NCBI GenBank assembly: GCA_049322575.1
Contig: JBMORQ010000003.1
Location: 17,719-81,718, forward strand
DNA length: 64,000 nt
Source of the DNA: Patescibacteria group bacterium
GTDB lineage: Bacteria; Patescibacteriota; Microgenomatia; UBA1400; PJMF01
Direction: 5' to 3'
How positions within the stretch are numbered: the stretch's first letter is position 1; each line of letters opens with the position of its first letter. The notes under the pieces were generated by a model that had not been told where the DNA came from, made no database searches, and worked only from the letters and a program-made list of their open reading frames with translations. Made by a program: the position numbers and the translations under genes. This document shows positions 34,279 through 57,758 of this stretch, piece after piece.

Positions 34279-34351
34279 CTTTGATCAAGATATCGTTTTG
34301 TTTCTGAGTAACAAAACAGAAGCACAAAAAACTCACTTGACACAAATCCAT

Positions 34352-34516
34352 TAGACTTGTAGCGAAATAAAACTTTGTAGTGAAAAAACTGATTTTTTTG
34401 AACGAAAAGGGTTTTTTTGAGTGAAGTAGCAGCATAGCTACTTCAAGCAAGAAAAAAAACCTTTGCAGTACTTAAAAGCAGTTTTGTAATAAAACTGTTA
34501 TTTCACTACAAGTCTA
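34352..34516. repeat. MITE-like palindromic repeat, copy A (165 bp) with about 19-bp terminal inverted repeats TAGACTTGTAGCGAAATAA / TTATTTCACTACAAGTCTA
   Basis: Near-identical (about 3 mismatches) to 43723-43887. The TIRs are also found in the minimal copy at 50728-50783. Internal hairpin GAAGTAGCAGCATAGCTACTTC. Confidence 0.8.
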
Positions 34517-34573
34517 TTATGAAGAAAACTGCTGTATTTGTCTAGATTATCGGTTCCAAGCTAGACAATTCTA

Positions 34574-35968
34574 CTATTGATTCATACCACTGGTTTTATC
34601 AGCGGCTTCTTTAACGTTTGCGGGTTTTTTTCTCGCTTCAACTTCTTCGATAAAAGCGTAGTTAATTAGACGTGATACCAATAGATCAAGAACAGCAACA
34701 ATCCAATACCATTTACACAGCCAAACCAGCAGCCAAAAACCTCCTGAGTAACAGTCACACTGGCGCAACCAGTAGAACAGGCCAATGGAAAGCAGGGCTA
34801 TGACCACAGCCACCCAGTGCTTTGTCTGAGTACGCTTCTTCTTGAAATAGTTGTCGAATAACATGGTCACTAATAGTTGCAGGATAAGTAGTATCCAAGG
34901 AACATAGAAACGCCAGCTCACACAAACTCCACTTGTGGCACCGGCTACCTCACCAGTTGGTTGAGAGGTTGGTTGCACCTGCGCTGATTGAGTCGATTCA
35001 TCGGTTGTTTCACCTAAAACTTGCCCGCCTTGACCAACTGGGCGAACGTCAGGCGCCAAGACCTGTCCAGATGTGATAGGAATTTCAGCACTATTAGACC
35101 TAGGGCCAGGAGCACAATCGTTAACTCCAAAAATCTGGAAAGAGTACGCTTGACCTGCTGAAAGCTGAGTAACTGTGTATGATGTAGTATTGCCAATATT
35201 GGTACTTCCGTATGATGCACCATCAGATATTCTAGTAAAAACTAGGGCATAGTGAGTCACTGGGCTGACTGACGTCCAGTTAAGGGTTACAGCATTCGGT
35301 CCGGCACCAGCTACACTCAAAGAAGGCGCGGAGGTAGGAACTTCTGCCTCACAAACAGGTGGCTTGGCTGGATCAGTGTTGGTGGAGCCGGGATTACCAC
35401 CAGGAGGATTCCCCGGATTGCCAGGATTTCCCGGGTTAGAGGGTCCATCACAAGTGATTCTGACAGCAAAATCAAAAACTGTCCGAGAACGTTGAAACTC
35501 GTTACCAGCTAAAATGTCAAAATTAGCATTCCAGGTAAAAACTCTTGTTGAATTGGGAGCCAGACTACCGAGTGAAATATTATCAGTGTCGTATAAGTCT
35601 TGGTATGAGCGATCGCTGGTGGCAACACCCGATATCTGTGTACCGAAATAATCTGTATTACCAGAATAAATGGCCGCAAACATTCTCTCAGCCAGGTTAA
35701 CCGAGCTTTCTGGGGTTGTGTCTGTGGCGTTGAGCAGCAGATTGCATGTTTCGTCACTATCATTATTGGTAATAGTTAATGTCTGAGTGAAATTGTCTCC
35801 AGGCATCATACCACTCTCATTGAATAGTGGAGTATCAGCTGGGGAAATACTACACGGACCATTGTTAGCACAAGTCACAGTTAAATCTGTGCCCGCCTCA
35901 GCTGAAACAACCAAGTTAAGAAAAAATGACAACGAAACTAGAAGTGATAAAAATATTTTTCTAATCAT
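34574..35968 (-). CDS. Cell-surface protein: signal peptide, TasA/camelysin-like N-domain, PGN-repeat linker, FN3 domain, Ser/Thr/Gln-rich stalk, and a C-terminal polytopic (three to four TM) Cys/Trp-rich membrane anchor
   Basis: 'LFNESGMMPGDNFTQTLTITNN' resembles the TasA-family 'kPGD...N.G' block. 'NPGNPGNPGNPPGGNPG' linker. An FN3-like 'VTLNWTSVSPVTHYALVF...YSFQIFGVND' region. Hydrophobic tail 'WILLILQLLVTMLF ... AVVIALLSIGLFYWL ... FWLLVWLCKWYWIVAVLDLLV'. Confidence 0.6.
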   Translation of the reverse strand: MIRKIFLSLLVSLSFFLNLVVSAEAGTDLTVTCANNGPCSISPADTPLFNESGMMPGDNFTQTLTITNNDSDETCNLLLNATDTTPESSVNLAERMFAAIYSGNTDYFGTQISGVATSDRSYQDLYDTDNISLGSLAPNSTRVFTWNANFDILAGNEFQRSRTVFDFAVRITCDGPSNPGNPGNPGNPPGGNPGSTNTDPAKPPVCEAEVPTSAPSLSVAGAGPNAVTLNWTSVSPVTHYALVFTRISDGASYGSTNIGNTTSYTVTQLSAGQAYSFQIFGVNDCAPGPRSNSAEIPITSGQVLAPDVRPVGQGGQVLGETTDESTQSAQVQPTSQPTGEVAGATSGVCVSWRFYVPWILLILQLLVTMLFDNYFKKKRTQTKHWVAVVIALLSIGLFYWLRQCDCYSGGFWLLVWLCKWYWIVAVLDLLVSRLINYAFIEEVEARKKPANVKEAADKTSGMNQ

Positions 35969-38900
35969 TCCATCCTCCAGTTAAACCTGTTTCCAGGAGT
36001 TTTTCGGCATTATCTTTATCCTGCAGCCTTAGTTGCAGCTTGATAGATGTAGCATCGATACCGCGGTGGGGAGTACACTCTCCGCCAGAGCAGGTACCAA
36101 AATATATGTCCTTAACCTCGACTGAATCACTATCTATATCAACTCCGCCGTTAATCACATCCACAACCTTCACTTGATTGTCGGCATCTACCACTGGATG
36201 CTCGTATTCAATATGATATAGACCGCGTTCAAAGCTTGACGCATTCTTAATCGACATCCAAGCCTTAAAAGGCTCCTGTTGTTGTAAAACCACCAAAGGA
36301 TCGGTGGCTGGCACTGGAGTCGGACTGATGGCAGGCATGGTCTGACCCTCAACTAGAGCAAGATTGGAAAGTTCCGACCATTTATGAGCAGAATCCATCG
36401 ATTTAAGTGCAAAATAGTAGGCTTTACCCGCCTCCAAACCTTTGACCAGAAGATCTTCTTGCTCTCCAGCAACTCTAGGAGCTAGACCCTCTGAACCCAG
36501 TGTTAAATTTGAAACCGCTGAAACTCGGCTGGCCGCAGACCAGTTGTCCTGAGTAATTGGTTGCTCAGAATATCGAATTTCATAGCGTAGAACGCTGGGA
36601 GCAAAGTTATCTGAGGGTGCTGTGAATGTCAGGCTATACTCGCCCTCTCCCTCATCATACGCCTTGAGATCGTTGATCGAGCTTGGTGCTTGATCATCCC
36701 ATGTGACGTAGATCGAATTCATCTTTCCTTTGGCTCCAGTACTGGCTACGGACCAGAAGTAAAGCATGTGGTCATCCGGCTCACCTTCAAGTGTGAAACC
36801 CACACCTGATTTGAGTGAGCCAGTTTTGATCTGACCATCCAGTAAATATCTGTAAGCTACTTCGCCGATGGTATCAGGATTGTCACTATAGATGGTAAAC
36901 AAAGCTCCACTGTCAACAACAGTCGCTGCAGTGTTGACGTCGTCCAAGTAGACGAGAGTGTTTTGCGATTGATCGCCTGTGTTACCTGCTTGTAGTTTAA
37001 GATTGAGCTGAGACGAGGCATCGTCGGCAACGTATATTGAAACATATTGCCAACCACTTGCCTGCCCAGATGCACCTGACAACGCCTGAAGTCTCGAAAG
37101 ATCTTTTGCCCAGACTTGGTATACCAGTTTGTCATTGATGTAGGCCGACAAGGCTGGTTCATCAAAGCCAGGATCAACTTCGCTCGTAACCATATTAAAC
37201 CAGAAACCAACCGAACGAAGTCCACGACCGGAATTATCAATATTCTGCGAAATGCTGTTCACACCTTGGCCAGAACCGTCTAAAACCGCCATAAAGGTAG
37301 CGCTACGTGGCTTAACTCCTGCCTGTCCGTTTTCAACCGCAGCAACCTGGCCCTGAGTGCCCCATGACTCTAATCCTTTGGAAAAATCGCCATTGTACAC
37401 TTTGTTTTGGATATCTTTTTCTGGACTGTTGGTTACGGTAATTGTCGAACCAGATGTGCTATCAATTGTGACAATAACTTGAGAAGTGGGAGAGGTGACT
37501 ACACTAGCATTGCCGGCTTCATCAACTGCTGAAAAGGAAATAGTGTACTCTCCGTCAGGTACACCCGTAGTGTCCCAGCTGTAAATTGTTTCGTTGTTGT
37601 AAGTGTTGGCTCCACCAGTCTGATCTGGGAAAGAAGGGACGGCGTTATTGCTTGCATCACGTGCCGTCAATAACCAAGAAGCCGGATTGGCATCAGATAA
37701 AGTAACGTAAAAGTCTATTGTTGCATTAGCTGCATAGCTATCGCCATCACTTGGGCTGTTAATAGCAGCTGCTGGCGCTAAAGTATCTAAAGTAATCTCA
37801 CAGTAATCACTCCAGGCACCTGGCCAATCAACTCCTGCATCAAAATTTCCATCATGATTATTATCCTCAAAGGCTCTAACTCTAGTATTCCACAAACCTT
37901 GAACGCCTGAACCCGAGCCAAATGAAGAGAATAGTGTGTAATTGTCTGTGGCATAGAAATAACCAATTGAACCAGAAGGGTAAGTTACTTCACGTTGATA
38001 GGCAATGTTTCGCCCAGAAACTGCAGACCAATTATGTGCGACTCTAGGCGCTGAAGTATTACCCGTGTTGGTTGTTGCGCCACAAGCTAGGTCGAGAGGC
38101 CTTTCATCGGGTGTGGTGGAAGACGGAGGGATGTTCCAGCCATCATTGGTTGGAGTTGCGGGCGTCCAGACAGAAGTAGATAAGCTACCGGCAATTAACT
38201 CAGTATCACTAAAGCCCTGATCGTAGGATTCAAAATTTGTCTGCCAGGCTTCAGTCACCATGTTAAAGTTACATGTCATGTTCTCAAGACTTGTATCAGC
38301 ATCCACAGGCAAACTCACCTCGTAGCTAAACCAATGCTCATCAGCCCCATAAAAACTGTTGGGGTAATAAGTATGACTATTGATGATGACCATGTCTGGG
38401 TCATGAGTGGGATTGTTGGTTACAAAATCATTAAAAGCACTCAAGGAACCACTGTATTTGAGATCGCTCTGGACGTTTGTTAGATCGCCTGGAGTGGCTG
38501 GTGCTGCAGTATGCCAGTTGTAGTGAACCTGAAGTTGTAGAGCGTCACAAAGAGCAGTGTCACTACCTGGCAAGATCGAGACGCGTGAAAGATATTTCAC
38601 ATTGAGAGAACCTAGTTTCTGCACGTAGATATCTCGAGAAACCACGTCTCCTGGCCAAAGACTGTTACTAATTGGACCAAAATCAGCTTGATCTGAGCGT
38701 AGTCCAATATCAAGAGTCGAAGCAGTAAAAACACTATTATAAGAAGTCTCGAGATCGGCAATTCCAGACAGTGTTGGCAGAGTTGTCGAGACCAAAATGA
38801 CTAAGGCAAAAAAACTAGTAACTTTGAGCCAGGTAATCGACCTCTTCTTCAAGAAGTCCACAAAATTTTTGATGGTGGTTAGATCATTCTTTATCTTCAT
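35961..38900 (-). CDS. 979-aa secreted multidomain protein with a SipW-cognate-type signal peptide, a TasA-like N-domain, Ig-like, CBM4/9-like and FN3-like domains
   Basis: The N-terminus 'IADLETSYNSVFTASTLDIGL' aligns position-for-position with the TasA-like 'FDDTEVSANNTFVAGQIDLEV' of the gene at 39596-40408. 'LWPGDVVSRDIYVQKLGSL' is a TasA block. 'NGDFSKGLESWGTQG' is a CBM_4_9-like start. Confidence 0.65.
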   Translation of the reverse strand: MKIKNDLTTIKNFVDFLKKRSITWLKVTSFFALVILVSTTLPTLSGIADLETSYNSVFTASTLDIGLRSDQADFGPISNSLWPGDVVSRDIYVQKLGSLNVKYLSRVSILPGSDTALCDALQLQVHYNWHTAAPATPGDLTNVQSDLKYSGSLSAFNDFVTNNPTHDPDMVIINSHTYYPNSFYGADEHWFSYEVSLPVDADTSLENMTCNFNMVTEAWQTNFESYDQGFSDTELIAGSLSTSVWTPATPTNDGWNIPPSSTTPDERPLDLACGATTNTGNTSAPRVAHNWSAVSGRNIAYQREVTYPSGSIGYFYATDNYTLFSSFGSGSGVQGLWNTRVRAFEDNNHDGNFDAGVDWPGAWSDYCEITLDTLAPAAAINSPSDGDSYAANATIDFYVTLSDANPASWLLTARDASNNAVPSFPDQTGGANTYNNETIYSWDTTGVPDGEYTISFSAVDEAGNASVVTSPTSQVIVTIDSTSGSTITVTNSPEKDIQNKVYNGDFSKGLESWGTQGQVAAVENGQAGVKPRSATFMAVLDGSGQGVNSISQNIDNSGRGLRSVGFWFNMVTSEVDPGFDEPALSAYINDKLVYQVWAKDLSRLQALSGASGQASGWQYVSIYVADDASSQLNLKLQAGNTGDQSQNTLVYLDDVNTAATVVDSGALFTIYSDNPDTIGEVAYRYLLDGQIKTGSLKSGVGFTLEGEPDDHMLYFWSVASTGAKGKMNSIYVTWDDQAPSSINDLKAYDEGEGEYSLTFTAPSDNFAPSVLRYEIRYSEQPITQDNWSAASRVSAVSNLTLGSEGLAPRVAGEQEDLLVKGLEAGKAYYFALKSMDSAHKWSELSNLALVEGQTMPAISPTPVPATDPLVVLQQQEPFKAWMSIKNASSFERGLYHIEYEHPVVDADNQVKVVDVINGGVDIDSDSVEVKDIYFGTCSGGECTPHRGIDATSIKLQLRLQDKDNAEKLLETGLTGGWND

Positions 38901-39459
38901 TGCTTAATGACTCAGTTGCTAGCTTTTTGGCAGATTTTCTTGCTCTGAAAATTCTGGCAATTTCTTTTTTTATGGTATTAAATTCGTTATAGGCAAGTAA
39001 AGTAGCAGGAATAACAATTAATAAAACAAAACCCATCTGGGTTTGAGAAAACATCACAATTTTACCCAAATATGGTATATGGAAGATTACCTTGCCGATT
39101 ACTCTCTTTTGTTCGGCTAATTCAGGATCTGCTTCTTCATTAGCATCACCTTTTGTTTGATAAAGCACACGGTCTTCTCGGTTCACTATACCAGTAATTC
39201 GGTGAGTATAAGTCTTATTGGAGCCAATCACTGGTACAGCAGTGATAATGTCTCCTATCTTGTATTCTGCCTGATCTTTAACTATGACCAAGCTACCAAC
39301 GTTAAGTGCTGGCTCCATTGAACCGGACAGAACAGCAAAAACTCTAAGTTTCAGCGGAGTGTTGAACTTGGATAATGCCAACATTCCAGCAACTACAACG
39401 ATAAAGATAGCCACCATCCAGGAAACAAGATTGCTGATAAATGATATTTTACTTTTCAT
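38884..39459 (-). CDS. sipW: SipW-type (archaeal/ER-type) signal peptidase I
   Basis: N-terminal TM, 'VLSGSMEP' catalytic Ser motif, 'THRI' and 'TKGDAN' blocks, and a C-terminal TM. 191 aa, the same size class as B. subtilis SipW. Confidence 0.75.
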   Translation of the reverse strand: MKSKISFISNLVSWMVAIFIVVVAGMLALSKFNTPLKLRVFAVLSGSMEPALNVGSLVIVKDQAEYKIGDIITAVPVIGSNKTYTHRITGIVNREDRVLYQTKGDANEEADPELAEQKRVIGKVIFHIPYLGKIVMFSQTQMGFVLLIVIPATLLAYNEFNTIKKEIARIFRARKSAKKLATESLSNEDKE

Positions 39460-39595
39460 GGTTAAAGCTAGTTTAGCTTAACTTGCTAACATTTAGCTTA
39501 CATTTTTATTATTGCTTTTTAAAACTTGGCCTTTTGCCGGTTATTGCCTATGTGGCGGGGACAATCGCCCCGCCACAAGCAATTTAACAAAATCA

Positions 39596-40408
39596 TTACG
39601 GAGTCCAGGTAGAGCACTCGAAATTTTCGTTGTGTCTTGATTGAACTGCGTAGAAAGTGATGTCACCAACGACATCGTCTCCCTGAGCGACGTTATTTGT
39701 TGCAACACCGCTACAAGTGAAACCACCGTTGACAGCATCGACAGTCATGGTACCGAAGCACCAAGCCTGACCCAAATACTCAGCTCCAGGAGCTGGAGTA
39801 AATGGAGTTCCAACTGTACCTCCAAAAACGTGGGTAGTAGAGTCAACCAAATCGAAGGTTTGACCACCATTACCAGCACCTTGAGGTAAGTTGTTGAGGG
39901 TGGTTGGAGGCATAACGACTGACTCGCCTGCTTCGTAAACACCATCCCCATCGTCGTTCCAGAAGAAGAAGTTCAACTGGTCATCGAGCTCACCATTCCA
40001 GTCTCCTGCAGTGGTGTCTTCATCAGCTGACTCGGCGTCGTTAACGGCGTCGTCGTCTGATGCGGTTAATTCGATGTTAGAACAAACCCATGAAGGATTG
40101 TCGCTAACTTGCAAGGTTGCGTAACCGTAGCCGGAATCACCTGGTTTGACATCATCAAAATTAAAGAAAATTTGAGATGCTGTCAAATCTTGGACTCCCC
40201 AAGTTCCAGCTGTGTCAGCGACATAGCCAGCACCTTGGTCAACCCAAGCTTGGTGACCAACTTCTAAATCAATCTGTCCAGCGACGAACGTATTGTTAGC
40301 TGAAACTTCGGTATCATCGAAGTAAGCCAGAGTACCAGCAGAAACGCCGGCCACGACTACACCTAACAAAACTGCGCTTGATAAGATTTTCTTCATTGCA
40401 CTATTCAC
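39596..40408 (-). CDS. TasA/camelysin-family secreted fibre subunit with a SipW-cognate signal peptide
   Basis: 'KKILSSAVLLGVVVAGVSAGTLAYFDDTEVSANNTFVAGQIDLEVG' is the SipW-cognate class signal plus mature N-terminus. 'FDDVKPGDSGYGYATLQVSDN' is a TasA block. A GGGGG RBS lies upstream of the ATG at 40408. Confidence 0.7.
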   Translation of the reverse strand: MNSAMKKILSSAVLLGVVVAGVSAGTLAYFDDTEVSANNTFVAGQIDLEVGHQAWVDQGAGYVADTAGTWGVQDLTASQIFFNFDDVKPGDSGYGYATLQVSDNPSWVCSNIELTASDDDAVNDAESADEDTTAGDWNGELDDQLNFFFWNDDGDGVYEAGESVVMPPTTLNNLPQGAGNGGQTFDLVDSTTHVFGGTVGTPFTPAPGAEYLGQAWCFGTMTVDAVNGGFTCSGVATNNVAQGDDVVGDITFYAVQSRHNENFECSTWTP

Positions 40409-43692: not shown

Positions 43693-43722
43693 AAGGCTAA
43701 CTGCACAACCTATTAATCGAAT

Positions 43723-43887
43723 TAGACTTGTAGCCAAATAAAACTTTGTAGTGAAAAAACTGATTTTTTTGAACGAAAAGGGTTTTTTTGAGTGAAGTAG
43801 TAGCATAGCTACTTCAAGCAAGAAAAAGAACCTTTGCAGTACTTAAAAGCAGTTTTGTAATAAAACTGTTATTTCACTACAAGTCTA
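43723..43887. repeat. MITE-like palindromic repeat, copy B (165 bp)
   Basis: Direct copy of 34352-34516 with about 3 substitutions. It ends 31 bp upstream of the oxidoreductase start codon. Confidence 0.8.
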
Positions 43888-43898
43888 TTTCTTGATAG

Positions 43899-44929: not shown

Positions 44930-45402
44930 CTCCTTTCTATTATTTACTGAGCTGACTGCTATGTTTAACAGTAACTCGCAGCAACCTAAGTAGCTTAACT
45001 AAAGCTTGCTCTTAGTATGCCTGTGTCTTAGAGTGTCAGGTTTATGTGTGTCTTAAAGAAAAGGCGTGTAAAGATCGTGTAAGAGGATTAATCGATGTTT
45101 TTAATAGGCAACCTTGCCGATATTGACTGGCTGCCTAAACGAACTATTTAAAAATCGAATTTTCTAACGAAAAACTGATTTTTGTGAGAGAAGTCATTCT
45201 CGAACGCAGAAATGATAAGGCTACTAAGTTTGATCAAACGACCTTAGTATTAATAAAAAGTAGCTTTGTGCTGCTGCTCTCTACACATCCTTTACATCTG
45301 TTAAAAAGGCCTATATATCGCAAAATATACATATTTAATACACTAAAAATCACTTTGATAGGGTTGATAGATCTGGTAGAGCATGATAGTATCAACAAAC
45401 TT

Positions 45403-48219
45403 ATGACAAAAAAACTACTAACCCTCACTGGATTAGCAATTAGCAGCCTTGTGCTTGCCCCAAAGACCTATGCTGGCAACTTGCCAGGTTTTGTCGTCAA
45501 TCACGACAATGTTGAGGAAACAATCGAAAACGGCGACGGTACTCAACGTACACAGGAAATAATCCCTAGCACCTATTTAGATGCTGCACGAAATAGTGAT
45601 ATCTTATTCGGTCACCAATCTGTCGGTCGTGTCATTTCTTACGGCGATGACAACACCTCAAACGGAGGTTTAGATGACTTGGTGAGCATGTATACCAATG
45701 GTTCACGATATCAGATTAATATGGATGGCAATCAGCCAAATGGCCTCCCCGATACAGTTTCAGCAAACTGGTATGTGACAAATAATGGTGTGGGAGAAGT
45801 ATTAATTGGTGACAATTTTAATCCCGTTTCCAAAATGGAGCACTTTGTCAATCTACTAGCTAGATCAGATATTAATCAAAACGTCAAGCTTGCATTAATG
45901 AAGTTCTGCTACGTTGACTTCACTAATTACACCGCAGCACAGGTCTGGAATGAACTCCCCGTCAACGTGGGTAGTACTACTGTATACGGTTACCGCGGCA
46001 TGATGGAGTATCTGGAAACGACCTATCCCAACATCAATTTCGTTTGGGTCACAGCTCCTCTAACTAGATCTAATCCTATTAGTGGCTATGGCACCAATGC
46101 CAATCGTTATGACTACAACACTCTAGTCAGGAACTACACTGCAGCCAACAATAAGGTTTTGTTTGACATTGCAGATATTGAGTCCCACGATTTATCTGGC
46201 AACTATTGCTATAACGCAACTGAGCGTGAGTATGAGTGTGACGGTACCTTGGCAGAAAACTATGTCAATGGTACTGGTCATCCCAACACTTTAGGCGCTT
46301 CTCGACTATCTAGAGCATTCTGGTGGTTAATGGCACGCGCCTCAGGTTGGAACCCTGGCTCATCGAATTATTCGCCTGTTGCCAGTTTCACCAGTAGCGT
46401 CAACGCTGCCTTGGTCCCTGCCACAGTGAGTTTTGATGCCTCGGCTTCTAATGACCCAGATGGCAATATCGTTAGCTATAGCTGGAACTTTGGTGATGGT
46501 AGCACAGGCTCAGGTGTAACTACCAGCCACACCTACACCCAGGCTGGTACTTACCAAGTCACTCTAACAGTCACCGATAATGCAGGAGCAACCGGCACAG
46601 CTTCAACTACTCTAACCATAAGTAGCGAGAACTCTGGCACTGGCGCTTTTAACGAAATAGCTGGTCAAGTTTCAATCGAAGCCGAACATTATCATTCAAA
46701 CCAAGCAGCTTCCAATGGCTCTTGGTCTGAAACAACCACCGTTGCAGCCTTCTCTGGTGAGTCGTATTTGGTGACCCCAGACAATGGCTTATGGAGAAGC
46801 GAGTATCAACTAAATGACTCTCCAATGGTGAGTTACGAGGTTAATTTTAGCTCTCCAGGTACTTATTACCTCTGGGTTCGCACCAATAATCCAAGCAACA
46901 CCAGTGACTCTCTCTACTTCGGAATCGACGGTAGCAGAGTTGGAGCCATGGAATTAAGTAATCTCAACAACTGGGGATGGAGCAGAACGGTTCGCATGAG
47001 TTCTAGCCCTGCGTCTGTCACCATCGGCTCAGCCGGCACTCATTCCATCAATATTTGGATGAGGGAGGATGGAGCAACCGTTGACAAGGTCATCTTAACC
47101 ACCAATGCCTCCTATGTGCCATCAGGCTCTGGACTAGCCGAGAGCCCACGAGGAGAGGTCAATCAATTGCCAGTGGCATCGGCCACTGCTACCCCAACTT
47201 CAGGAAATATTCCACTTGAAGTTAGCTTTGATGCCTCGGCTTCTAATGACCCAGATGGCAATATCGTTAGCTATAGCTGGAACTTTGGTGATGGTAGCAC
47301 AGGCTCAGGTGTAACTACCAGCCACACCTACACCCAGGCAGGCAGTTTCACTGCCACCTTGACCGTCACCGATAACGACGGTGGCACCGCCAACCACACC
47401 ACTAGCATCACGGTGGTGGATCCAAATGCCAACAATCAGCCAACCGCCAGCTTCACCCAGGACAAAACCAGCGGTGTTGCACCTGTTGAAGTAAACTTTG
47501 ATGGCTCGGCTTCAACTGATTCTGATGGCACAATCACCGACTACTCTTGGAACTTTGGTGATGGCAATACAGGATCTGGCGTCACTACCAGCCACACCTA
47601 CACCCAGGCGGGGTCATATCAAGTCACCTTAACTGTGACTGATGATGACGGGGCAACCGCCACCGCAAATCTCACCATCACCGTGACTGTACCCAACGGC
47701 ACGGGGGCTTTTGTTGAGACGGCTGGCAATGTCTCTATGGAAGCTGAGCATTTCATGAGCAATGCCTCAACGACTATCGGAAGCTGGAATGCAGCCACTG
47801 CTCTTGCTTCTTATACCGGTGAGTCTTACATCACTACTACAGACAGCAATGTCTGGAGAAGCGAGTATCAACTAAATGACTCTCCAATGGTTAGCTATGA
47901 GATCAACTTCAGTACTCCTGGTACATATTACCTCTGGGTTCGTACCAACAATCCAAGCGGCACTAGCGATTCTGTCCACTTTGGTCTTAACAACGCTCGA
48001 GTTGGTACCATGGAACTGAGCAATGTCGGCAGCTGGGGTTGGAGCCGAACCCTTCGTATGAGTTCAAGCCCTGCTTCAATTACGGTGAGCAGTGCTGGCA
48101 CTCACACCTTCAATATCTGGATGAGAGAGGACGGAACCAACGTAGACAAGATTATCTTGACCACTAACGCCTCCTACACTCCAAGCGGTGAAGGAATAGC
48201 CGAGAGCAGCAGACAATAA
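45403..48219 (+). CDS. Large secreted protein: signal peptide, SGNH/GDSL-like hydrolase-like domain, PKD domain, CBM-like beta-sandwich, two PKD domains, and a second CBM-like beta-sandwich
   Basis: Signal 'MTKKLLTLTGLAISSLVLAPKTYAG'. 'ILFGHQSVG' (GDSx-like) and 'NGTGHPNTLG' (block-V-like). Three 'SFDASASNDPDGNIVSYSWNFGDGSTGSGVTTSHTYTQAG' PKD units. Two 'SEYQLNDSPMVSYE...YYLWVRTNNPS...WGWSRT' units of about 170 aa. Confidence 0.8.
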   Translation: MTKKLLTLTGLAISSLVLAPKTYAGNLPGFVVNHDNVEETIENGDGTQRTQEIIPSTYLDAARNSDILFGHQSVGRVISYGDDNTSNGGLDDLVSMYTNGSRYQINMDGNQPNGLPDTVSANWYVTNNGVGEVLIGDNFNPVSKMEHFVNLLARSDINQNVKLALMKFCYVDFTNYTAAQVWNELPVNVGSTTVYGYRGMMEYLETTYPNINFVWVTAPLTRSNPISGYGTNANRYDYNTLVRNYTAANNKVLFDIADIESHDLSGNYCYNATEREYECDGTLAENYVNGTGHPNTLGASRLSRAFWWLMARASGWNPGSSNYSPVASFTSSVNAALVPATVSFDASASNDPDGNIVSYSWNFGDGSTGSGVTTSHTYTQAGTYQVTLTVTDNAGATGTASTTLTISSENSGTGAFNEIAGQVSIEAEHYHSNQAASNGSWSETTTVAAFSGESYLVTPDNGLWRSEYQLNDSPMVSYEVNFSSPGTYYLWVRTNNPSNTSDSLYFGIDGSRVGAMELSNLNNWGWSRTVRMSSSPASVTIGSAGTHSINIWMREDGATVDKVILTTNASYVPSGSGLAESPRGEVNQLPVASATATPTSGNIPLEVSFDASASNDPDGNIVSYSWNFGDGSTGSGVTTSHTYTQAGSFTATLTVTDNDGGTANHTTSITVVDPNANNQPTASFTQDKTSGVAPVEVNFDGSASTDSDGTITDYSWNFGDGNTGSGVTTSHTYTQAGSYQVTLTVTDDDGATATANLTITVTVPNGTGAFVETAGNVSMEAEHFMSNASTTIGSWNAATALASYTGESYITTTDSNVWRSEYQLNDSPMVSYEINFSTPGTYYLWVRTNNPSGTSDSVHFGLNNARVGTMELSNVGSWGWSRTLRMSSSPASITVSSAGTHTFNIWMREDGTNVDKIILTTNASYTPSGEGIAESSRQ
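46432..47339 (+). repeat. Intragenic direct repeats: a 113-bp perfect DNA repeat (46432-46544 and 47227-47339) encoding identical PKD-domain cores. Together with the duplicated CBM-like module (about 46640-47150 and 47700-48210), this indicates recent internal duplication.
   Basis: Identical nucleotide strings 'TTTGATGCCTCGGCTTCTAATGACCCAGATGGCAATATCGTTAGCTATAGCTGG...' are seen at both positions. Confidence 0.75.
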
Positions 48220-48242: not shown

Positions 48243-48285
48243 CCAGCCTATTGTCGGTTCATAACTGACAGGGCTGGTTTTTTTG
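48243..48285 (+). terminator. Rho-independent terminator after the PKD-protein gene
   Basis: CCAGCC..TGTC / GACAGGGCTGG stem followed by a TTTTTTT run. Confidence 0.65.
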
Positions 48286-48343: not shown

Positions 48344-50746
48344 TTGACATGTGTATTAGATGAGTTACAATTGCTTTTTACATATTTGATGTGTATCGAT
48401 ATGTTAAACACAATTGAACGTATAACTAAAAGAAATCGAGGAATTAGATCATTCCGCAGGAGTGGCGCAGAGCGACCAAACCCCGATGTTTCTTCTGGCA
48501 CGCTTGCTGCATACCTTTTGCTAGAATTTTTAAGTCGAGAGACTGCCAATAAATCAACTATTCCCTCAGTCGATAAGACCATCACCTCAATTGAACAGCA
48601 GTTAAATACTCTCGAGATTGAGATACCAGAAGCACTAGATATTGATGGTTCAAACGAACTTGCTTATCATTATTTAAGAACTTTGAAGGTCGCTCAATAC
48701 CTTGACGGAGGTCTAGACACTAGAAACACCCCATCTCAAATTTATACCACAGCCACCAGGCTAAATTTGGAACAACAATTAGCTAATCTCCCAGATGGCG
48801 TGGCTAATGCTTTCACTAACCCCGCATTTATTCTTAGACAAGAACTTGCCTCGATGGGTTTACATGGATTTGATATTTATTGTGATGCAATTATTAACGG
48901 CCCACTTGTTTCAAACGCAACTGAAACCAGAATTTTACATAAGATCAGAGAAGCCAATCCTGAGTTAATAGGTAAGGAGTTAAATAGACTCTCAAAATTG
49001 ATTAAGAAACTGTCATTGTTAACCTATGACGCTGGCTCCACCACTGGCAACAGCATTCACCAGGACTCTCAAACCTTCTCAAATCTAGAAAAATGGACCA
49101 TGTTTTTACAACGACTTGAGCGTATTGAAAACGAAAACCAAAGAAGAATAGCGGCCAGAATAGTCATGGAAACTGTCCGTCAACAAACAGCCCTAACTCG
49201 AGCCGATGGCCTGGGCTTGGCGTTTGATTCAGTATTTGGTATTTCAGGTACACACTTTATGTATTTCATGGTAAATGGCGACCAAGAAGGTGTGTTGTGT
49301 CAACCTGCCGCCTCGGGAAGTACTGTGGGGGATGCTGCTAGAGGGAAAAAATTAGGTGGTGGTGTTGGTAGCTGCGCAAATTTACCAGAAAACAAAAATC
49401 CCTGCACCAAGGTCGATGTCACGATCGTACCCAGCCGTAAAGAAGATGGTTCCGCGCTGAGTTTTGAGGAATACCGTTTCCTGCAAATTAAATCGCTTGT
49501 TGAGGGTCTGGAAAAAAGCTTGAAAATTTCTGAGACCACCAATAATCCACCTCAGTTTAGCCATCTAGTTGCCATTCCACCCAAGTGTGGCTTGGTTTAT
49601 AAACAAGCTGAAGAGCTTTTAAATAGCTTTGACCTAAACTATCTTTTAGAGAGCTCAACATTAACAAACAAAGCACAAAAAGCGATAATTACAAAGTTTT
49701 TAGAGAAGCAAGGCAAATTCTTATTGATCATCGATGCTGCTCAAGAGCGTTGGCTGGTAGATCCAGCTAAAGTTTTGCAATTGTTTGAAAATAAAGGTAT
49801 TGCCACTGTCTGGATGAGCACTCTTTCTAAGTCAATCGGAGCCGCAAAGTTGGCCGGTCTTTTTTACTTTAATTCACAGGCCACTGAGTTGGTTGCTGAA
49901 AGAATTTCTAGGGCTACTAGAGAAGAAATTCTCAACATAATTCGTTATTATGCTGTTGGTTTCTTGAGCCCAGCACTTGAGCAAGCTGTAATGCAAAGAA
50001 TCGAGACACTGAATGCACAGCCCAATGCTGAGAAAATACCCACAGAATTAGCTATCAACTTCAACCAAGCAGCCAAAGTTCTGGCCTCCACAGAAACATT
50101 AGCGGAGTTTAGAGCTGCCAATAAACACGACATAGACCAAGAAGGTGAACTTCAAGCAAGTATTAACTGGTTAAGGAACATTACCTCCGCCAGCATTAAG
50201 GATCATCTCCAGATCAAATTAGTTGATGACCAAGATGCTTCACCCTCAATGATTCAATCATTTCTCATTAAGGATTTGCTTGGTGAGCCATTCAGCTCTA
50301 CCATGTTAAAAAGACTGAGAGTGATGCTCCGAACCGGCGTTGCTTTTAATGAAAATAGTAGCAAGCTAGAATTTTTTGCTACCAAAACATTTTGTGGCAA
50401 CCCATTTGATGACATTACTGCCACACCCAAGAGAGATGAAAACGGTAATTTGCTAGACGTTGCCATCAACAAAACCAAACACGTACCTTTCTTAAGGTTT
50501 GGACCTAGAGCCGAGCTGATCATGACCATAAGCAAATTGTTAAACGAAAAACAGAGACTGGAAGCTATTGAACAAAAAACTGAGGATGACTTGGTTCAGC
50601 TCAATGCTGCTCAAACTCAACTAATAATCATCGAAAAGTTATGGCAAGAAAATATTGATCGATTGAGAAATGTCGTTGAATATTATCATCTGCTTGCAAC
50701 AAAGCTTTATCAGGATGGAACATCTAATAGACTTGTAGTGAAATAG
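48344..50746 (+). CDS. Large orphan protein (up to 800 aa), predicted soluble and alpha-helical, no recognisable domain. The true start may be an internal Met.
   Basis: A long uninterrupted ORF with balanced composition, no signal peptide or TM, no Walker or nuclease motifs. Its stop codon TAG (50744-50746) lies inside MITE copy C. Confidence 0.55.
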   Translation: MTCVLDELQLLFTYLMCIDMLNTIERITKRNRGIRSFRRSGAERPNPDVSSGTLAAYLLLEFLSRETANKSTIPSVDKTITSIEQQLNTLEIEIPEALDIDGSNELAYHYLRTLKVAQYLDGGLDTRNTPSQIYTTATRLNLEQQLANLPDGVANAFTNPAFILRQELASMGLHGFDIYCDAIINGPLVSNATETRILHKIREANPELIGKELNRLSKLIKKLSLLTYDAGSTTGNSIHQDSQTFSNLEKWTMFLQRLERIENENQRRIAARIVMETVRQQTALTRADGLGLAFDSVFGISGTHFMYFMVNGDQEGVLCQPAASGSTVGDAARGKKLGGGVGSCANLPENKNPCTKVDVTIVPSRKEDGSALSFEEYRFLQIKSLVEGLEKSLKISETTNNPPQFSHLVAIPPKCGLVYKQAEELLNSFDLNYLLESSTLTNKAQKAIITKFLEKQGKFLLIIDAAQERWLVDPAKVLQLFENKGIATVWMSTLSKSIGAAKLAGLFYFNSQATELVAERISRATREEILNIIRYYAVGFLSPALEQAVMQRIETLNAQPNAEKIPTELAINFNQAAKVLASTETLAEFRAANKHDIDQEGELQASINWLRNITSASIKDHLQIKLVDDQDASPSMIQSFLIKDLLGEPFSSTMLKRLRVMLRTGVAFNENSSKLEFFATKTFCGNPFDDITATPKRDENGNLLDVAINKTKHVPFLRFGPRAELIMTISKLLNEKQRLEAIEQKTEDDLVQLNAAQTQLIIIEKLWQENIDRLRNVVEYYHLLATKLYQDGTSNRLVVK

Positions 50747-50783
50747 CATTTTTATTACAAAATTTTATTTCGCTACAAGTCTA
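50728..50783. repeat. Minimal MITE-like copy C (56 bp): the two TIRs joined by a short AT-rich spacer
   Basis: TAGACTTGTAGTGAAATA...TATTTCGCTACAAGTCTA. The TIR variants (GTG on the left, GCG on the right) are swapped relative to copies A and B. Confidence 0.7.
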
Positions 50784-50784
50784 A

Positions 50785-51564
50785 TTAACTATCTGGGTAA
50801 CGCAACATCACTTGAATCATACGAATTGTAGTCAGAGCGTCGAGTGCTTCGGCTAAATTATCAACACAAATGTGGGCTAGAGATATTAGTCCTTCATCGG
50901 GTTTTTCTGGATTAATAATGGCAATAGCTAACCCAGCAGCTTTGAAAACTTCGTAATCGTTTGGCCCATCGCCAATTACCAGACAGTTATCAAAATCAAC
51001 GCCTGCCAAACCCGCTCTTGATCTACCCTGACTCAATTCTTCAAGAAAAACGCTAAGCTGCTCATGCTTCCGAGCTGCTTGATCTGGAAAATAATCGAAA
51101 CTGACCAGTTCGCCTGTTCGCTTATCCCAATTAAATCTGGCATTAGCTAAATACCTGGAAACCCCCAGAGTACCTGCAAATACTTTGGCAAACTCTTCCA
51201 ATGAGCCTGTTAAGATACAACAAACAACTCCCCAATCATTTAAAAAATGAACTAGCTCTTTGGCCCACTCTTTCGGCTTAAGCTGTTCAAATATTTCCTC
51301 TGCCTTCTCTTCGGAAATACCTAAGCCGTTCCATAAATCAACCCAAATCTTCATTGCTTGATCAAAAGTCATCTCATTTTTAGCAAAAGAGGAATAGGCA
51401 GCAAGATGAATAGCAACATTTGATTCAATTTTGTCGGGATCAGACAATCCCTCTGTCAGCTCAACCCAAGAGTTTCCTTCGTACAGCGTGCCATCTACAT
51501 CAAGAATGGCAGCGTAAATGCTTGGTAAAAAAGAATCTAATGACCTTCCACCTCTTCTAATCAT
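50785..51564 (-). CDS. HAD-superfamily hydrolase (HAD-IB / phosphoserine-phosphatase-like)
   Basis: 'AAILDVDGTLYEG' motif I, and 'VIGDGPNDYEVFKAAGLAIA' motif III/IV. Confidence 0.7.
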   Translation of the reverse strand: MIRRGGRSLDSFLPSIYAAILDVDGTLYEGNSWVELTEGLSDPDKIESNVAIHLAAYSSFAKNEMTFDQAMKIWVDLWNGLGISEEKAEEIFEQLKPKEWAKELVHFLNDWGVVCCILTGSLEEFAKVFAGTLGVSRYLANARFNWDKRTGELVSFDYFPDQAARKHEQLSVFLEELSQGRSRAGLAGVDFDNCLVIGDGPNDYEVFKAAGLAIAIINPEKPDEGLISLAHICVDNLAEALDALTTIRMIQVMLRYPDS

Positions 51565-54306: not shown

Positions 54307-55947
54307 CTAATAAAGCTTCTGTAGATATTCCTGAAGCATTCTTTTGGCGCTAAACTGCTGGGCTAGATTAATCGAGCCACGCATCATTTGCAGCCATTTT
54401 TCCGGAATGCCCGCAGTATTGCGCTCGAAATAGAGCGGCACAATTTGTTGCTCTAACTTTTCATATAAATCAGCCGAGACGCGATTGTCATCCAACGTCC
54501 AGCCCAAGCCATACCAATCGACCTCGTGCGCCCAGCCATCCGGCACGGTGCACTGTAAAACACCGTTGGCAATTGCTTTCATGCCTGAAGTACCAGATGC
54601 CTCCATACCAAACTCTGGCAGATTAAGCCAGACATCAGAGCCCCGCACCAACATCTTGGCCACATCCAGGTTATAGTTTGGAATGAACAAAGCATGGCCA
54701 GAAAGTTCCTTGGCCATGTATTTAATGATTGTCTGGAGACGGATCTTTCCAGCCTGATCAAGCATGTGAGCTTTGCCCGAAACCAAGAGCTGAACAGGCC
54801 GATCTACCTGGCGCAAAATAGCTCGTAAACGCTCGATGTCTTCAAAAATTGCCTCAACGCGCTTATATCCAGCCAGACGCCGAGCCCAGGAAATAACCAG
54901 ACTATGTGGATCGTAACCAAATCCAGTTTGCAGAGATACAAACTCTGCCAAGCGGCGCTTATTTGCTTGATGAATCTGCCAAAGTTGCTCGTCATTAAGA
55001 TCTGGCTTAGCTAACTCTGGGTCTTGCCAGGTGGGAAGGTGCACGCCGTTAGTCACATTCGTCCAGAGATATTGTGGCCACTGCTCAGCCGAGAGTTTGG
55101 AATGAATCTGGCTAACGCCGTTGGCTCGGTGAGAAGAATTCAGCGAAAAAGTTGCCATAGAAAAACGATCGGGCGCCTCTGGCGAAATTCCCAGCTCTAA
55201 AAGCTGATCAACTCCAATGGCCATTTTATCGGCGTAATACTTGGCGTATCGACGAATTAGGGACAAATCAACCGAGTTATTCCCTGCCGCCACCAAAGTA
55301 TGATTAGTATAAACGGTTTTACTGACAGCCAACTCCCTCGCCTGGCGATAATCCATGCCATGTTCATCCATCAACTGACGAATCACCTGCCAAAGCATCA
55401 AGGCCGGCCGGCCCTCGTTGAGGTGATAAACGGAGGGATGAATCCCCAGGGTCTGGAGCAACTTGACACCACCCACCCCCAAGACGAACTGCTGCTTGAG
55501 CGTCACCTCTTCGTTGCCAGTATAAAGGGCGTGAGTGATGCTCCGCTCTGGGAGCTGGTTTTGATCGGTGTCGGTGTCGAGCAAATATAAGGTGACATTG
55601 GGAGCGTAGCTCTTTTTCCAAACTCTCGCCCAGATATCCAGTTCTGACAAATGGACGCGAATGAACAACGGCTGATCATCGAGATAAACATGTTCCAACC
55701 CTGCCGAGAGCGGCTCGAAAATCATATCTCGATCCTGTTGCATACCATCTTGGTCGATCTGCTGCACAATGCCCTCGCCGCGATACATCAAGCCCAAAGC
55801 CACAAAAGGCAGATTCTGATCTGCGGCTTGTTTGACAGTGTCTCCCGCCAAAACCCCCAAACCACCAGCGTAAAAAGGCCAGTTGGTCTGGAGACCATAC
55901 TCAAAACAAAAGTAGGCAATGGGGTTGTGGGGTGTGATTTGAGGCAT
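54307..55947 (-). CDS. glgP: Alpha-glucan phosphorylase (GT35, short GlgP/archaeal-type)
   Basis: 'FEYGLQTNWPFYAGGLGVLAGDTVKQAADQNLPFVALGLMYRGE' matches the GT35 N-terminal block. The PLP-site region 'SGTSGMKAIANG' is the conserved EASGTSNMK variant. Confidence 0.85.
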   Translation of the reverse strand: MPQITPHNPIAYFCFEYGLQTNWPFYAGGLGVLAGDTVKQAADQNLPFVALGLMYRGEGIVQQIDQDGMQQDRDMIFEPLSAGLEHVYLDDQPLFIRVHLSELDIWARVWKKSYAPNVTLYLLDTDTDQNQLPERSITHALYTGNEEVTLKQQFVLGVGGVKLLQTLGIHPSVYHLNEGRPALMLWQVIRQLMDEHGMDYRQARELAVSKTVYTNHTLVAAGNNSVDLSLIRRYAKYYADKMAIGVDQLLELGISPEAPDRFSMATFSLNSSHRANGVSQIHSKLSAEQWPQYLWTNVTNGVHLPTWQDPELAKPDLNDEQLWQIHQANKRRLAEFVSLQTGFGYDPHSLVISWARRLAGYKRVEAIFEDIERLRAILRQVDRPVQLLVSGKAHMLDQAGKIRLQTIIKYMAKELSGHALFIPNYNLDVAKMLVRGSDVWLNLPEFGMEASGTSGMKAIANGVLQCTVPDGWAHEVDWYGLGWTLDDNRVSADLYEKLEQQIVPLYFERNTAGIPEKWLQMMRGSINLAQQFSAKRMLQEYLQKLY

Positions 55948-56309
55948 TATGAGTGAATTGTTTTAATGGTTGCGCCATATTTGGCTGTGATATTTCTGGC
56001 CGTGCTATTTCGGTCCGCGCCGGCCATGTTATTTAATGATTTTTAGATGTTTTCAGTTTATGTGATTTTTGGGGATTTCTGAATAATCAAATCATTTGAG
56101 GTGGAATTAAAGGGCTGGAGTCATGATGGATTTTTTATTGATTTTGTCGTTTTTGATTTGGAATGTAGAGTGGCCTCTGATTCATTAGAAATAAGCCTAT
56201 AATATTTACATATTTGTCTTTTTAAGATAAAATAAGCTTGTTGCCACCATCCCCAAAACAAGTCACAGCGACTTGAGGCGGGGAACCCGGCAACAAAAAG
56301 GAGGGAGGC

Positions 56310-56510
56310 ATGAAAAAACTGCCTTCCGCTTTAACGAGGGCCTTAATGGCCCTCCCCCGCTGGGTTCGAATCCCAGCGGGTATCAGCCTAATTGCCGGCC
56401 CAAGTTTTTTTCTGGCTTGGGCGAGGCAAAACAATCCCGATGAATGGCTATGGATCGCCATAGCCATCATCGGGTCGGTGATTTTTTCAGTCGTTTTTTG
56501 GAACGACTGA
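56310..56510 (+). CDS. Small (66 aa) two-TM membrane protein
   Basis: Strong RBS AAAGGAGGGAGG 5 nt before the ATG; two hydrophobic helices; followed by an intrinsic terminator. Confidence 0.45.
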   Translation: MKKLPSALTRALMALPRWVRIPAGISLIAGPSFFLAWARQNNPDEWLWIAIAIIGSVIFSVVFWND

Positions 56511-56519
56511 GAACAGGTC

Positions 56520-56556
56520 GCCCCCACCTGAACCAACGGGGGCATTTTCCTTTTTA
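56520..56556 (+). terminator. Rho-independent terminator (GCCCCC / GGGGGC stem then a T-rich tail)
   Basis: Sequence GCCCCCACCTGAACCAACGGGGGCATTTTCCTTTTT lies directly after the stop at 56510. Confidence 0.6.
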
Positions 56557-56699
56557 CCTTTCTCCCCACCCTTTCCTCCTCCCACACACCCAGTGTTTTT
56601 GCTACACTAGATTGAGTAATTAGTGGAGTGTTTTGGACTTCTTTGGCCGCAGCCGCCCAATAATCCAAAAAAACATCCACAAAATCGATTAACCCTGCC

Positions 56700-57758
56700 A
56701 TGACTTATCAAGACATCATCAACATTCTAGGAGAGCAAGCCGAGTACTATCTCGGTCATATTTGTCACAAAATCCCTAAAGATAAAATCCATGCTACCAA
56801 CCCAGATCATGTGCCGCAGATCTTTGGCTTTTCCGATCGTAATGAGCGGGTGGTCAATAATCTCCAGCGTTTGTATCAACACGGCCGCCTCGGAGGCACG
56901 GGTTATTTGTCGATTTTACCGGTAGATCAAGGAATCGAGCACACAGCCGGTTACTCTTTTACCCGTAACCCAAGTTACTTCAACCCCGACGAGGTTGTTA
57001 CCTTGGCCATCGAGGGCGGAGCTAACGGCATCGCTTCCACTCTTGGCCTATTGGGCTTGGTTAGCAAAAAATATGCCGACAAGATTCCTTTTATCGTCAA
57101 GATTAACCATAACGAGCTCCTAACCTATCCCACCAAGCATGACCAAATCCTGTTTGGCAATGTGCAGCAAGCCTACGACATGGGTGCAGCCGGCATTGGG
57201 GCAACCATTTATTTTGGCTCTGCTGAATCTAACCGCCAAATCGTGGAGATTTCTCAAGCATTTCATCAAGCACACAAACTGGGTCTTTTTACCATCCTCT
57301 GGTGCTATCCTCGCAATCCCGCCTGGGAGAAGGATGGCGTTAATTACGAGACGGCCGCTGATATTACCGGCCAAGCAATTCATCTAGGGGTAACTCTCGA
57401 GGCCGATATCATCAAACAGAAAATGCCCACGGTTGGCGAAGGCATGAAGACGTTTAACTTTGGCAAGTATGACGATGAGATGTACCAAAGTCTACTTACC
57501 AATCACCCCATTGATATGGTACGCTACCAAGTAGCCAATGCCTACGCTGGTAAAATCGGCTTGATCAATTCAGGCGGAGCGTATGGCGGGGAGACTGACT
57601 GGCGTGAAGCCGTCATCCAGGCGGTGGTCAATAAGCGGGCGGGCGGTGCCGGCTTAATCATGGGCCGCAAAATTTTTAACCGACCTTTCTGGCAAGGTGT
57701 AGAACTGATGAGAGCGGTGCAAGATGTCTACCTCGAAAAAGAAATAACTTTGGCTTGA
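56700..57758 (+). CDS. fbaB: Class I fructose-bisphosphate aldolase (DhnA/FbaB type)
   Basis: Collinear similarity to E. coli FbaB: 'LYQHGRLGGTGYLSILPVDQGIEH', 'IPFIVKINHNELLTYP', 'GAAGIGATIYFGS', 'ADIIKQKMP', 'LINSGGAYGGETD', 'INKRAGGAGLIMGRK'. Confidence 0.9.
   Translation: MTYQDIINILGEQAEYYLGHICHKIPKDKIHATNPDHVPQIFGFSDRNERVVNNLQRLYQHGRLGGTGYLSILPVDQGIEHTAGYSFTRNPSYFNPDEVVTLAIEGGANGIASTLGLLGLVSKKYADKIPFIVKINHNELLTYPTKHDQILFGNVQQAYDMGAAGIGATIYFGSAESNRQIVEISQAFHQAHKLGLFTILWCYPRNPAWEKDGVNYETAADITGQAIHLGVTLEADIIKQKMPTVGEGMKTFNFGKYDDEMYQSLLTNHPIDMVRYQVANAYAGKIGLINSGGAYGGETDWREAVIQAVVNKRAGGAGLIMGRKIFNRPFWQGVELMRAVQDVYLEKEITLA

Follow-up and report, generated by a model that had tools for sequence, protein, structure and literature searches.

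Architecture of the encoded protein

The stretch of DNA analysed here (the window) comprises 64,000 nucleotides of the 123,950-bp contig JBMORQ010000003.1 from a Patescibacteria group bacterium, and the gene under study occupies positions 45403–48219 of its forward strand, on which all parts of the gene described below lie. It encodes a 938-residue protein in which a divergent N-terminal domain (N-domain) with a predicted SGNH fold is joined to three PKD domains and two β-jelly-roll modules of the GH115_C type. The translation matches exactly GenBank MFZ5376121.1, a protein of a Patescibacteria metagenome-assembled genome (MAG) deposited as ‘PKD domain-containing protein’. The gene is real and intact, and by the same match the open reading frame (ORF) and coordinates proposed in an earlier note on this DNA are correct. 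The mechanical ORF opens at 45184, and the deposited protein begins at the methionine encoded at 45403 (MTKKLL). Read from this start, residues 1–24 (45403–45474; MTKKLLTLTGLAISSLVLAPKTYA followed by G) form a predicted Sec-type signal peptide with a basic n-region, a hydrophobic core and a TYA-G cleavage-type site, which suggests Sec secretion of the 938-residue protein.

The N-domain covers residues 26–321 (296 residues; 45478–46365), its assignment drawing on an AlphaFold2 (AF2) model, Foldseek, profile alignment and residue conservation. It is followed by PKD domain 1 (residues 323–405; 46369–46617; PF18911, 92.4 bits when scanned alone), GH115_C-type module 1 (residues 411–584; 46633–47154; PF17829, 65.7 bits), PKD domain 2 (residues 588–672; 47164–47418; PF18911, 90.1 bits), PKD domain 3 (residues 678–763; 47434–47691; PF18911, 91.2 bits) and GH115_C-type module 2 (residues 765–938; 47695–48216; PF17829, 65.4 bits), with the stop codon at 48217–48219. 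Each of these five PKD and module copies exceeds the Pfam gathering score when scanned alone (27 bits for PKD, PF18911/PF00801; 24.1 bits for GH115_C, PF17829), and both GH115_C matches span profile positions 2–171 of 172. Thus the three PKD domains of the earlier note are Pfam PKD_4 domains at 90–92 bits each, and the duplicated β-sandwich module that it described is a 174-residue CBM-like jelly-roll of which both copies pass the PF17829 cut-off. The catalytic TIM-barrel of GH115 (PF15979) was not found in a Pfam scan of the 938 residues, so the protein carries the accessory domain only. Reading of the translation revealed no sortase motif, SLH domain or transmembrane tail as a cell-anchoring signal at the C-terminus. 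An NCBIfam match to the pilus protein PamR of candidate phyla radiation (CPR) bacteria (53 bits against a cut-off of 300) derives from the Ig/PKD region and was rejected.

Fold and conserved residues of the N-domain

The N-domain has no match in Pfam or NCBIfam, even at permissive thresholds. The Pfam GDSL models PF00657 and PF13472 detect nothing at E <= 1 in the whole protein or at E <= 0.01 in the N-domain alone, and they reach 1e-5 in just 3 of 63 multidomain relatives of the N-domain. A single-sequence search of the PDB likewise found nothing, and a family-profile search gave a marginal best match, the acetyl-xylan esterase AlAXEase (7ddy, E 0.04). The AF2 model of the N-domain, built from 72 sequences, has a predicted local distance difference test (pLDDT) score of 89.1 and a predicted template modelling score of 0.90. 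All 32 Foldseek matches of this model in the PDB at E <= 0.001 are SGNH esterases, SGNH acyltransferases or designs on that fold (probability 0.99–1.00; template modelling (TM) score 0.37–0.46 on the query and 0.35–0.64 on the target). They include platelet-activating factor acetylhydrolase (PAF-AH; 1fxw, 1wab), PatB (7tjb), PbeAcXE (7tog) and AlAXEase (7ddy), together with a polyvinyl-alcohol esterase, rhamnogalacturonan acetylesterase (1deo) and sialate O-acetylesterases. The model therefore predicts the three-layer α/β/α SGNH (flavodoxin-like) fold for the N-domain, and the SGNH assignment of the earlier note is borne out by these matches and by the profile alignment of blocks III–V to 7ddy.

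The motifs FGHQSVG and GTGHPN, with Ser73 (45619–45621) and His293 (46279–46281), respectively, are present as the earlier note described. In the AF2 model, Ser73 opens a helix directly after strand 1, and the last helix begins just after His293; a serine after strand 1 and a histidine before the last helix are the standard SGNH layout. The block I context is F-G-H-Q-S-V-G, not G-D-S, with Ser73 and Gly75 at the junction of strand 1 and helix 1, and Gly136 after strand 2 is a candidate block II glycine by position alone. In the weak alignment of the family profile to AlAXEase (blocks III–V), M-K-F-C-Y-V-D lies opposite L-F-V-G-V-N-D, and the block III variant K167-F-C-Y-V-D172 (45901–45918) lacks the asparagine of G-x-N-D that belongs to the oxyanion hole. 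An hhalign comparison of the family profile with Escherichia coli TesA aligned block V alone, with G-T-G-H-P-N opposite D-G-I-H-P-N. Of the block V signature D-x-x-H, the histidine is thus present as His293 and the aspartate is absent, its place three residues upstream (His-3) being taken by Gly290 (46270–46272). As the N-domain lacks two of the four residues that give SGNH hydrolases their name, we treat it as an SGNH variant, not as a canonical member.

Conservation across the 249 aligned members of the N-domain clade centres on the same residues. Gly75 is invariant, Ser73 and His293 are each kept in 248 members, and His71 is kept in 237. Near-invariance extends to five more polar residues surrounding the predicted site, namely Lys144, Lys167 and Asp255 (248 each), Asp172 (247) and Cys169 (244). 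By comparison, Gly136 is retained in 139, and 217 members have Val or Ile at the position of the block III asparagine (171). At His-3, 177 members carry Asp and 72 (29%) another residue, 35 of them Gly; Gly occurs in the window protein and in its closest relatives P0001, P0164, P0244 and P0002. The replacement of the catalytic aspartate reported in the earlier note is therefore correct, this protein having Gly290 where TesA has Asp in the hhalign comparison and where most relatives have Asp in the family alignment. Its use as a hint of non-catalysis does not hold, since Asp is absent from 72 of 249 members while Ser and His are each retained in 248, and the loss here is a normal state of the family as judged from the alignment. 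Ser-His dyads without an acid are known among other SGNH esterases. The conservation pattern of the clade reads as that of an active enzyme rather than a decayed one, and we conclude that the N-domain has the modelled SGNH hydrolase fold and probably that mechanism too. Most likely, Ser73 would act as the nucleophile and His293 as the base, in a dyad that dispenses with both the usual Asp and the block III Asn.

The same residues bear on a different reading, in which the N-domain is an SGNH-like pseudo-enzyme that only binds, and the protein is a surface adhesin or lectin that attaches the Patescibacteria cell to a host or matrix. The absence of both the canonical Asp and the block III Asn would suit such a protein, adhesins typically carry PKD and CBM-like modules, and dependence on other cells is presumed for Patescibacteria, whose secreted proteins are few (PMC11495043). 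However, the near-invariance of Ser73, His293 and the five surrounding polar residues, all of which are retained in the Asp-less subfamily as well, argues against a binding-only role, as does the lack of a visible anchoring signal at the C-terminus. We regard this reading as quite unlikely, and on the data from the 249 members we reject the specific argument that loss of Asp makes the N-domain a pseudo-enzyme.

Comparison with the SGNH/GDSL carbohydrate esterases (7ddy, 7tog and 1deo) shows shared and divergent features. The predicted α/β/α fold, a putative block I Ser then Gly and the block V His-(L/P)-N are common to both, as are (predicted) secretion and fusion to binding modules. The N-domain differs in having G-H-Q-S in place of G-D-S, C-Y-V-D in place of G-x-N-D and no Asp at His-3; in addition, it carries the extra invariant Lys144, Lys167 and Cys169 and is ~80 residues longer.

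Accessory modules, relatives and proposed function

In sequence searches, the module matches the domain at the C-terminus of GH115 enzymes with solved structures (4zmh and 6nps), IEAEH(Y/F) motif included. The AF2 model of the module is of medium confidence (pLDDT 72.7); Foldseek ranked GH115 domain D first (4zmh, 6nps and 4c90), followed by CBM6, CBM35 and CBM36. The likeness to CBM6 and CBM35 is one of fold only (E 2e-5 to 3e-4; TM score 0.41–0.46 on the query), and no CBM family was matched in a Pfam scan of the protein or of the modules. PF17829 corresponds to domain D of GH115 (PMC13059095), and in BoAgu115A this β-sandwich lines the xylan cleft of the partner protomer, where the mutation Y792A lowers activity 100-fold (PMC3879575). 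The IEAEH(Y/F) and W...D(K/R) motifs of both modules recur in AxyAgu115A and SdeAgu115A. Whereas the domain D of GH115 enzymes works in trans within a dimer, the module here is detached from the GH115 catalytic domain, is present twice and is joined to an esterase-type domain. Across seven aligned modules, Glu, Asp and Trp residues in EAE, WxW and WMREDGxxxD are invariant, and by analogy with CBM6/35 they might bind a metal and provide an aromatic platform. The same module type occurs in the DUF5060-containing, T9SS-sorted proteins P0175 and P0218. PF17829 here behaves as an accessory part that is portable beyond GH115.

A search with the N-domain returned 223 relatives, some named ‘SGNH/GDSL hydrolase family protein’ at source, and a profile search of 1.84 billion cluster representatives (50% identity) gave 5,072 at E <= 1e-3 and 1,864 at E <= 1e-30. 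The full-length homologue search was dominated by PKD-repeat proteins, and P0164, P0244, P0175 and P0218 alone were informative. The fusion of N-domain and GH115_C module recurs in two of these, the metagenomic proteins P0164 and P0244, whose N-domains belong to the same subfamily (54% and 49% identity, respectively) and share the NGTGHP motif and a conserved Cys pair. P0164 (682 residues) carries two PKD domains and one module where the window protein has three and two, and P0244 (688 residues) carries two modules on Pro/Thr linkers and has no PKD domain. Since one relative uses PKD domains and the other Pro/Thr linkers, the pairing of N-domain and module appears to be kept while the linkers appear interchangeable. 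The two modules of one protein are 70% identical here and 62% identical in P0244, as against 36–43% between proteins (39–43% for the P0244 modules compared with those of the window protein). Being mutual closest relatives, the modules of each protein seem to have doubled independently or to evolve in concert. The P0244 gene (locus L002, 2996–5062) sits directly after rpoA-rplQ-rplM-rpsI.

A scan of a genome collection found 79 N-domain loci across many phyla, comprising Patescibacteria (four lineages), Chloroflexota, Melainabacteria, Planctomycetota, Acidobacteriota, Myxococcota, Spirochaetota, Bacteroidota and one archaeal MAG. GH115_C stands beside the N-domain in none of the 79, and the fusion is therefore rare. 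The accessory parts in the 63 multidomain clade members are TIG (10), PKD, GH115_C, β-helix, Laminin_G_3 and Ig_Rha78A_N (3 each), cohesin (2), and GH44, SLH and an exosortase fusion (1 each); F5/8-C, BACON and dockerin-like repeats are further glycan-related parts of the clade. One member is fused to exosortase EpsH and DUF3485 (EpsI-like); the partner in another is a GH44 glycoside hydrolase. These fusions hint that a single clade may serve exopolysaccharide processing as well as the breakdown of plant-type glucans. Patescibacteria relatives from Woesebacteria, Amesbacteria and a marine MAG (L009, 1734–2777; L023, 5815–7017; L003, 938–2131) end in dockerin-like DxNxDxxVNxxD repeats and carry neither PKD nor GH115_C, a pattern which suggests cohesin-dockerin-type attachment in CPR bacteria.

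On balance we favour, with restrained confidence, a secreted Ser-His esterase aimed at glycans and equipped with two binding modules. The esterase part of this reading draws on the conservation of Ser73, Gly75 and His293 across the clade. The glycan part draws on modules that match PF17829 and have CBM6/35/36 fold neighbours, on the BoAgu115A domain that lines the xylan cleft and on the glycan-related accessory parts of other clade members. A glycan-directed esterase or binder, as the earlier note had supposed, remains a sensible reading of an SGNH fold combined with three PKD domains and GH115_C/CBM-like modules. The multimodular protein would leave the cell through Sec and be aimed at a glycan, from which the N-domain would likely remove ester-linked, probably O-acetyl, groups of an extracellular polysaccharide. 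The GH115_C-type jelly-rolls would serve as carbohydrate-binding or substrate-cleft modules, their two copies would allow two-site binding (avidity), and the three PKD domains would act as spacers. The O-acetyl-peptidoglycan esterase Ape1 provides a precedent for such cooperation, as its SGNH domain works with a CBM35-type jelly-roll that helps to form or feed the active cleft. Ape1 differs in having the full Asp-His-Ser triad and a CBM35 inserted in the catalytic domain, whereas in the window protein PKD spacers stand between the putative catalytic domain and the modules, which are C-terminal and duplicated. The two proteins showed no detectable sequence similarity.

Several observations weigh against the proposed function. 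The structural matches of the N-domain are modest in TM score on the query and reach 10–15% identity. With the oxyanion-hole Asn changed to Val or Ile and the GDS motif to G-H-Q-S, the chemistry could differ from that of canonical SGNH esterases. The module model is of medium confidence only, with residues 23–60 below a pLDDT of 50, and we found no literature report of PF17829 binding carbohydrate as an isolated module. Furthermore, no glycan-utilisation genes adjoin the gene here or at the loci of two architecture-level relatives (L001 and L002).

An alternative is that the N-domain is an SGNH-fold O-acyltransferase of the PatB/AlgX kind, or a lipid or phospholipid esterase of the PAF-AH kind, rather than a polysaccharide de-acylase. 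PatB and PAF-AH are among its top structural matches, and the unusual invariant Lys/Lys/Cys set hints at non-standard chemistry. However, the Foldseek scores of esterases and transferases are indistinguishable, so that the ranking carries no weight; no acyl-donor partner of the MBOAT/AT3 type adjoins the gene here or at L001 and L002; and the accessory domains of the clade are glycan-related, not lipid-related. We consider either activity unlikely and retain the glycan-directed esterase as the preferred reading.

About 15 extracellular proteins were predicted per Patescibacteria MAG in one study (PMC11495043). With secretomes this small, a 938-residue protein that joins a putative enzyme to binding modules would be one of the few tools with which such a cell acts on its surroundings or on a host surface. 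As the clade is large, with 5,072 clusters, goes undetected by Pfam and NCBIfam and diverges from the S-G-N-H tetrad, one characterised N-domain member would provide an annotation for thousands of proteins and could perhaps establish a new esterase family. The gain is at the level of annotation; the enzyme type is fairly ordinary and would not surprise a specialist, and no concept in the field is changed.

History of the repeats and genomic surroundings

The earlier note had reported an exact 113-bp repeat in the PKD-coding DNA, and an exact-match search located it at 46432–46544 inside PKD1 and at 47227–47339 inside PKD2, 795 bp (265 codons, in frame) apart. Outside this tract, the DNA of PKD1 and PKD2 is ~49% identical, and the chance probability of such a run is ~1e-33. 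The note had further taken the modules to be highly identical and the whole array to be a very recent intragenic expansion; the high identity is not confirmed, and the timing is wrong for modules and PKD domains alike. The modules (~520 bp each) share 70% of their amino acids and 70–74% of their nucleotides, with 0.24 nonsynonymous substitutions per site (dN) and a saturated synonymous value (dS) of 2.07; their dN/dS of ~0.12 points to purifying selection. The PKD pairs are diverged, too: PKD1 and PKD2 share 68% of residues with the tract included (dN 0.27, dS 0.74), PKD1 and PKD3 64% (dN 0.30, dS 1.30), and PKD2 and PKD3 66% (dN 0.35, dS 1.21). With dS at 0.7–2.1 across the module and PKD pairs and the 113-bp patch alone identical, the copies are old paralogues under purifying selection.

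Because the exact tract is embedded in diverged PKD flanks, recent gene conversion best explains why PKD1 and PKD2 are identical there. The modules are spaced by 1062 nt and the PKD copies by 795 + 270 nt, as would be expected had a PKD-module cassette been duplicated in tandem long ago and one further PKD domain been added; conversion between PKD1 and PKD2 would later have homogenised the 113 bp. Recombination between the two tracts would delete one unit in frame and leave N-domain-PKD-PKD-module, the arrangement seen in P0164. We offer tentatively, as possible but doubtful, a bolder version of the preferred esterase reading. The clade, with at least 5,000 clusters at 50% identity across many uncultured phyla, would represent an unrecognised carbohydrate-esterase family, with a Ser-His dyad and invariant Lys144, Lys167, Cys169 and Asp172 in place of the classic Asn and Asp. 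In this Patescibacteria cell, the enzyme, aimed by its two GH115_C-type modules, would strip O-acyl groups from a host or matrix glycan in an episymbiotic or scavenging lifestyle, and the tracts spaced by 795 bp would possibly allow recombinational switching between one-module and two-module forms.

The source is a MAG, and exact repeats of ~113 bp can mislead assemblers, so the number of PKD/module units or the identity of the tract could in principle be an artefact of short-read assembly. However, the modules differ at 30% of nucleotide positions, synonymous sites being saturated; the frame is open throughout, and complete domains are recognised in all copies. Assembly error is unlikely given that all five repeat copies have distinct flanks, so that each finds its own support, and that one linear path (A-R-B...C-R-D) would be required to use all unique segments; we regard such an artefact as very improbable.

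Directly 5’ of the start codon, a consensus scan gave a tentative promoter-like site with TG (TTGATA-17-TAGTAT; 45364–45392, forward strand). A GC-rich, terminator-like hairpin (CCAGCC...GGCTGG followed by a T-run; 48243–48285, forward strand), found by sequence reading and consensus scan, stands 3’ of the stop codon, between the gene and a downstream ORFan. The ORFan (48344–50746, annotated start 48401, forward strand; 781–800 residues) has its own strong promoter-like site at 48344–48371, a near-consensus TTGACA-16-TACAAT in the same scan. With this site and the hairpin after its stop codon, the gene under study looks monocistronic. The orphan status given to the ORFan in the earlier note stands, as it has no match in Pfam or NCBIfam and its sole match among 5.8 billion proteins is itself. 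The other neighbours are unrelated to glycan use (upstream, an ArsP permease, an amine oxidase, a YflT-like protein and a BON protein; downstream, HAD and RRM proteins), and the same holds for the neighbouring genes at L001 and L002.

The earlier note also described the gene as horizontally acquired cargo with flanking miniature inverted-repeat transposable elements (MITEs). MITE-like repeats do flank it, at 43720–43889 and, as a 62-bp miniature with little beyond two inverted repeats, at 50725–50786. The element of ~170 bp has two copies of 98% identity (34350–34519 and 43720–43889) with terminal inverted repeats of ~22 bp (A[T/A]TAGACTTGTAG[C/T]GAAATAA). The mechanical ORF of the amine oxidase overlaps copy B at its 5’ end, and the MITE-like copies bracket a four-gene segment containing the gene. 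The repeats and the orphan gene thus stand, while the compositional case for transfer itself is weak. The G+C content at third codon positions (GC3) of the gene is 0.476, as against 0.411 expected from its amino-acid content and ~1.3 standard deviations above the window mean, its codon-usage chi-square is ~142 on ~41 degrees of freedom, and other genes deviate as much or more, including the phosphorylase gene region at 54–58 kb. Horizontal acquisition is plausible because the phyletic distribution of the N-domain clade is patchy; the MITE-like copies are no more than candidate mobilisers of the segment. With the modest codon-usage deviation and the low GC3 of the ORFan inside the segment, we did not adopt the idea of a MITE-bounded island.

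Two other regions of the window deserve mention. The alpha-glucan phosphorylase gene and its neighbours (54307–57758) have the highest GC3 in the window, 0.51–0.55 as compared with ~0.40 expected, and are more atypical in composition than the gene under study. On the reverse strand, a SipW-type signal peptidase (38884–39459; NF046067, E 9e-33) adjoins a TasA/camelysin-like protein with a SipW-dependent signal peptide (39596–40408), and next to these genes lie those for a 979-residue protein without a family match (35961–38900) and a 464-residue fn3 protein (34574–35968). Together, positions 34574–40408 have the appearance of an operon for surface fibres of the TasA/SipW type, here in a Patescibacteria genome.

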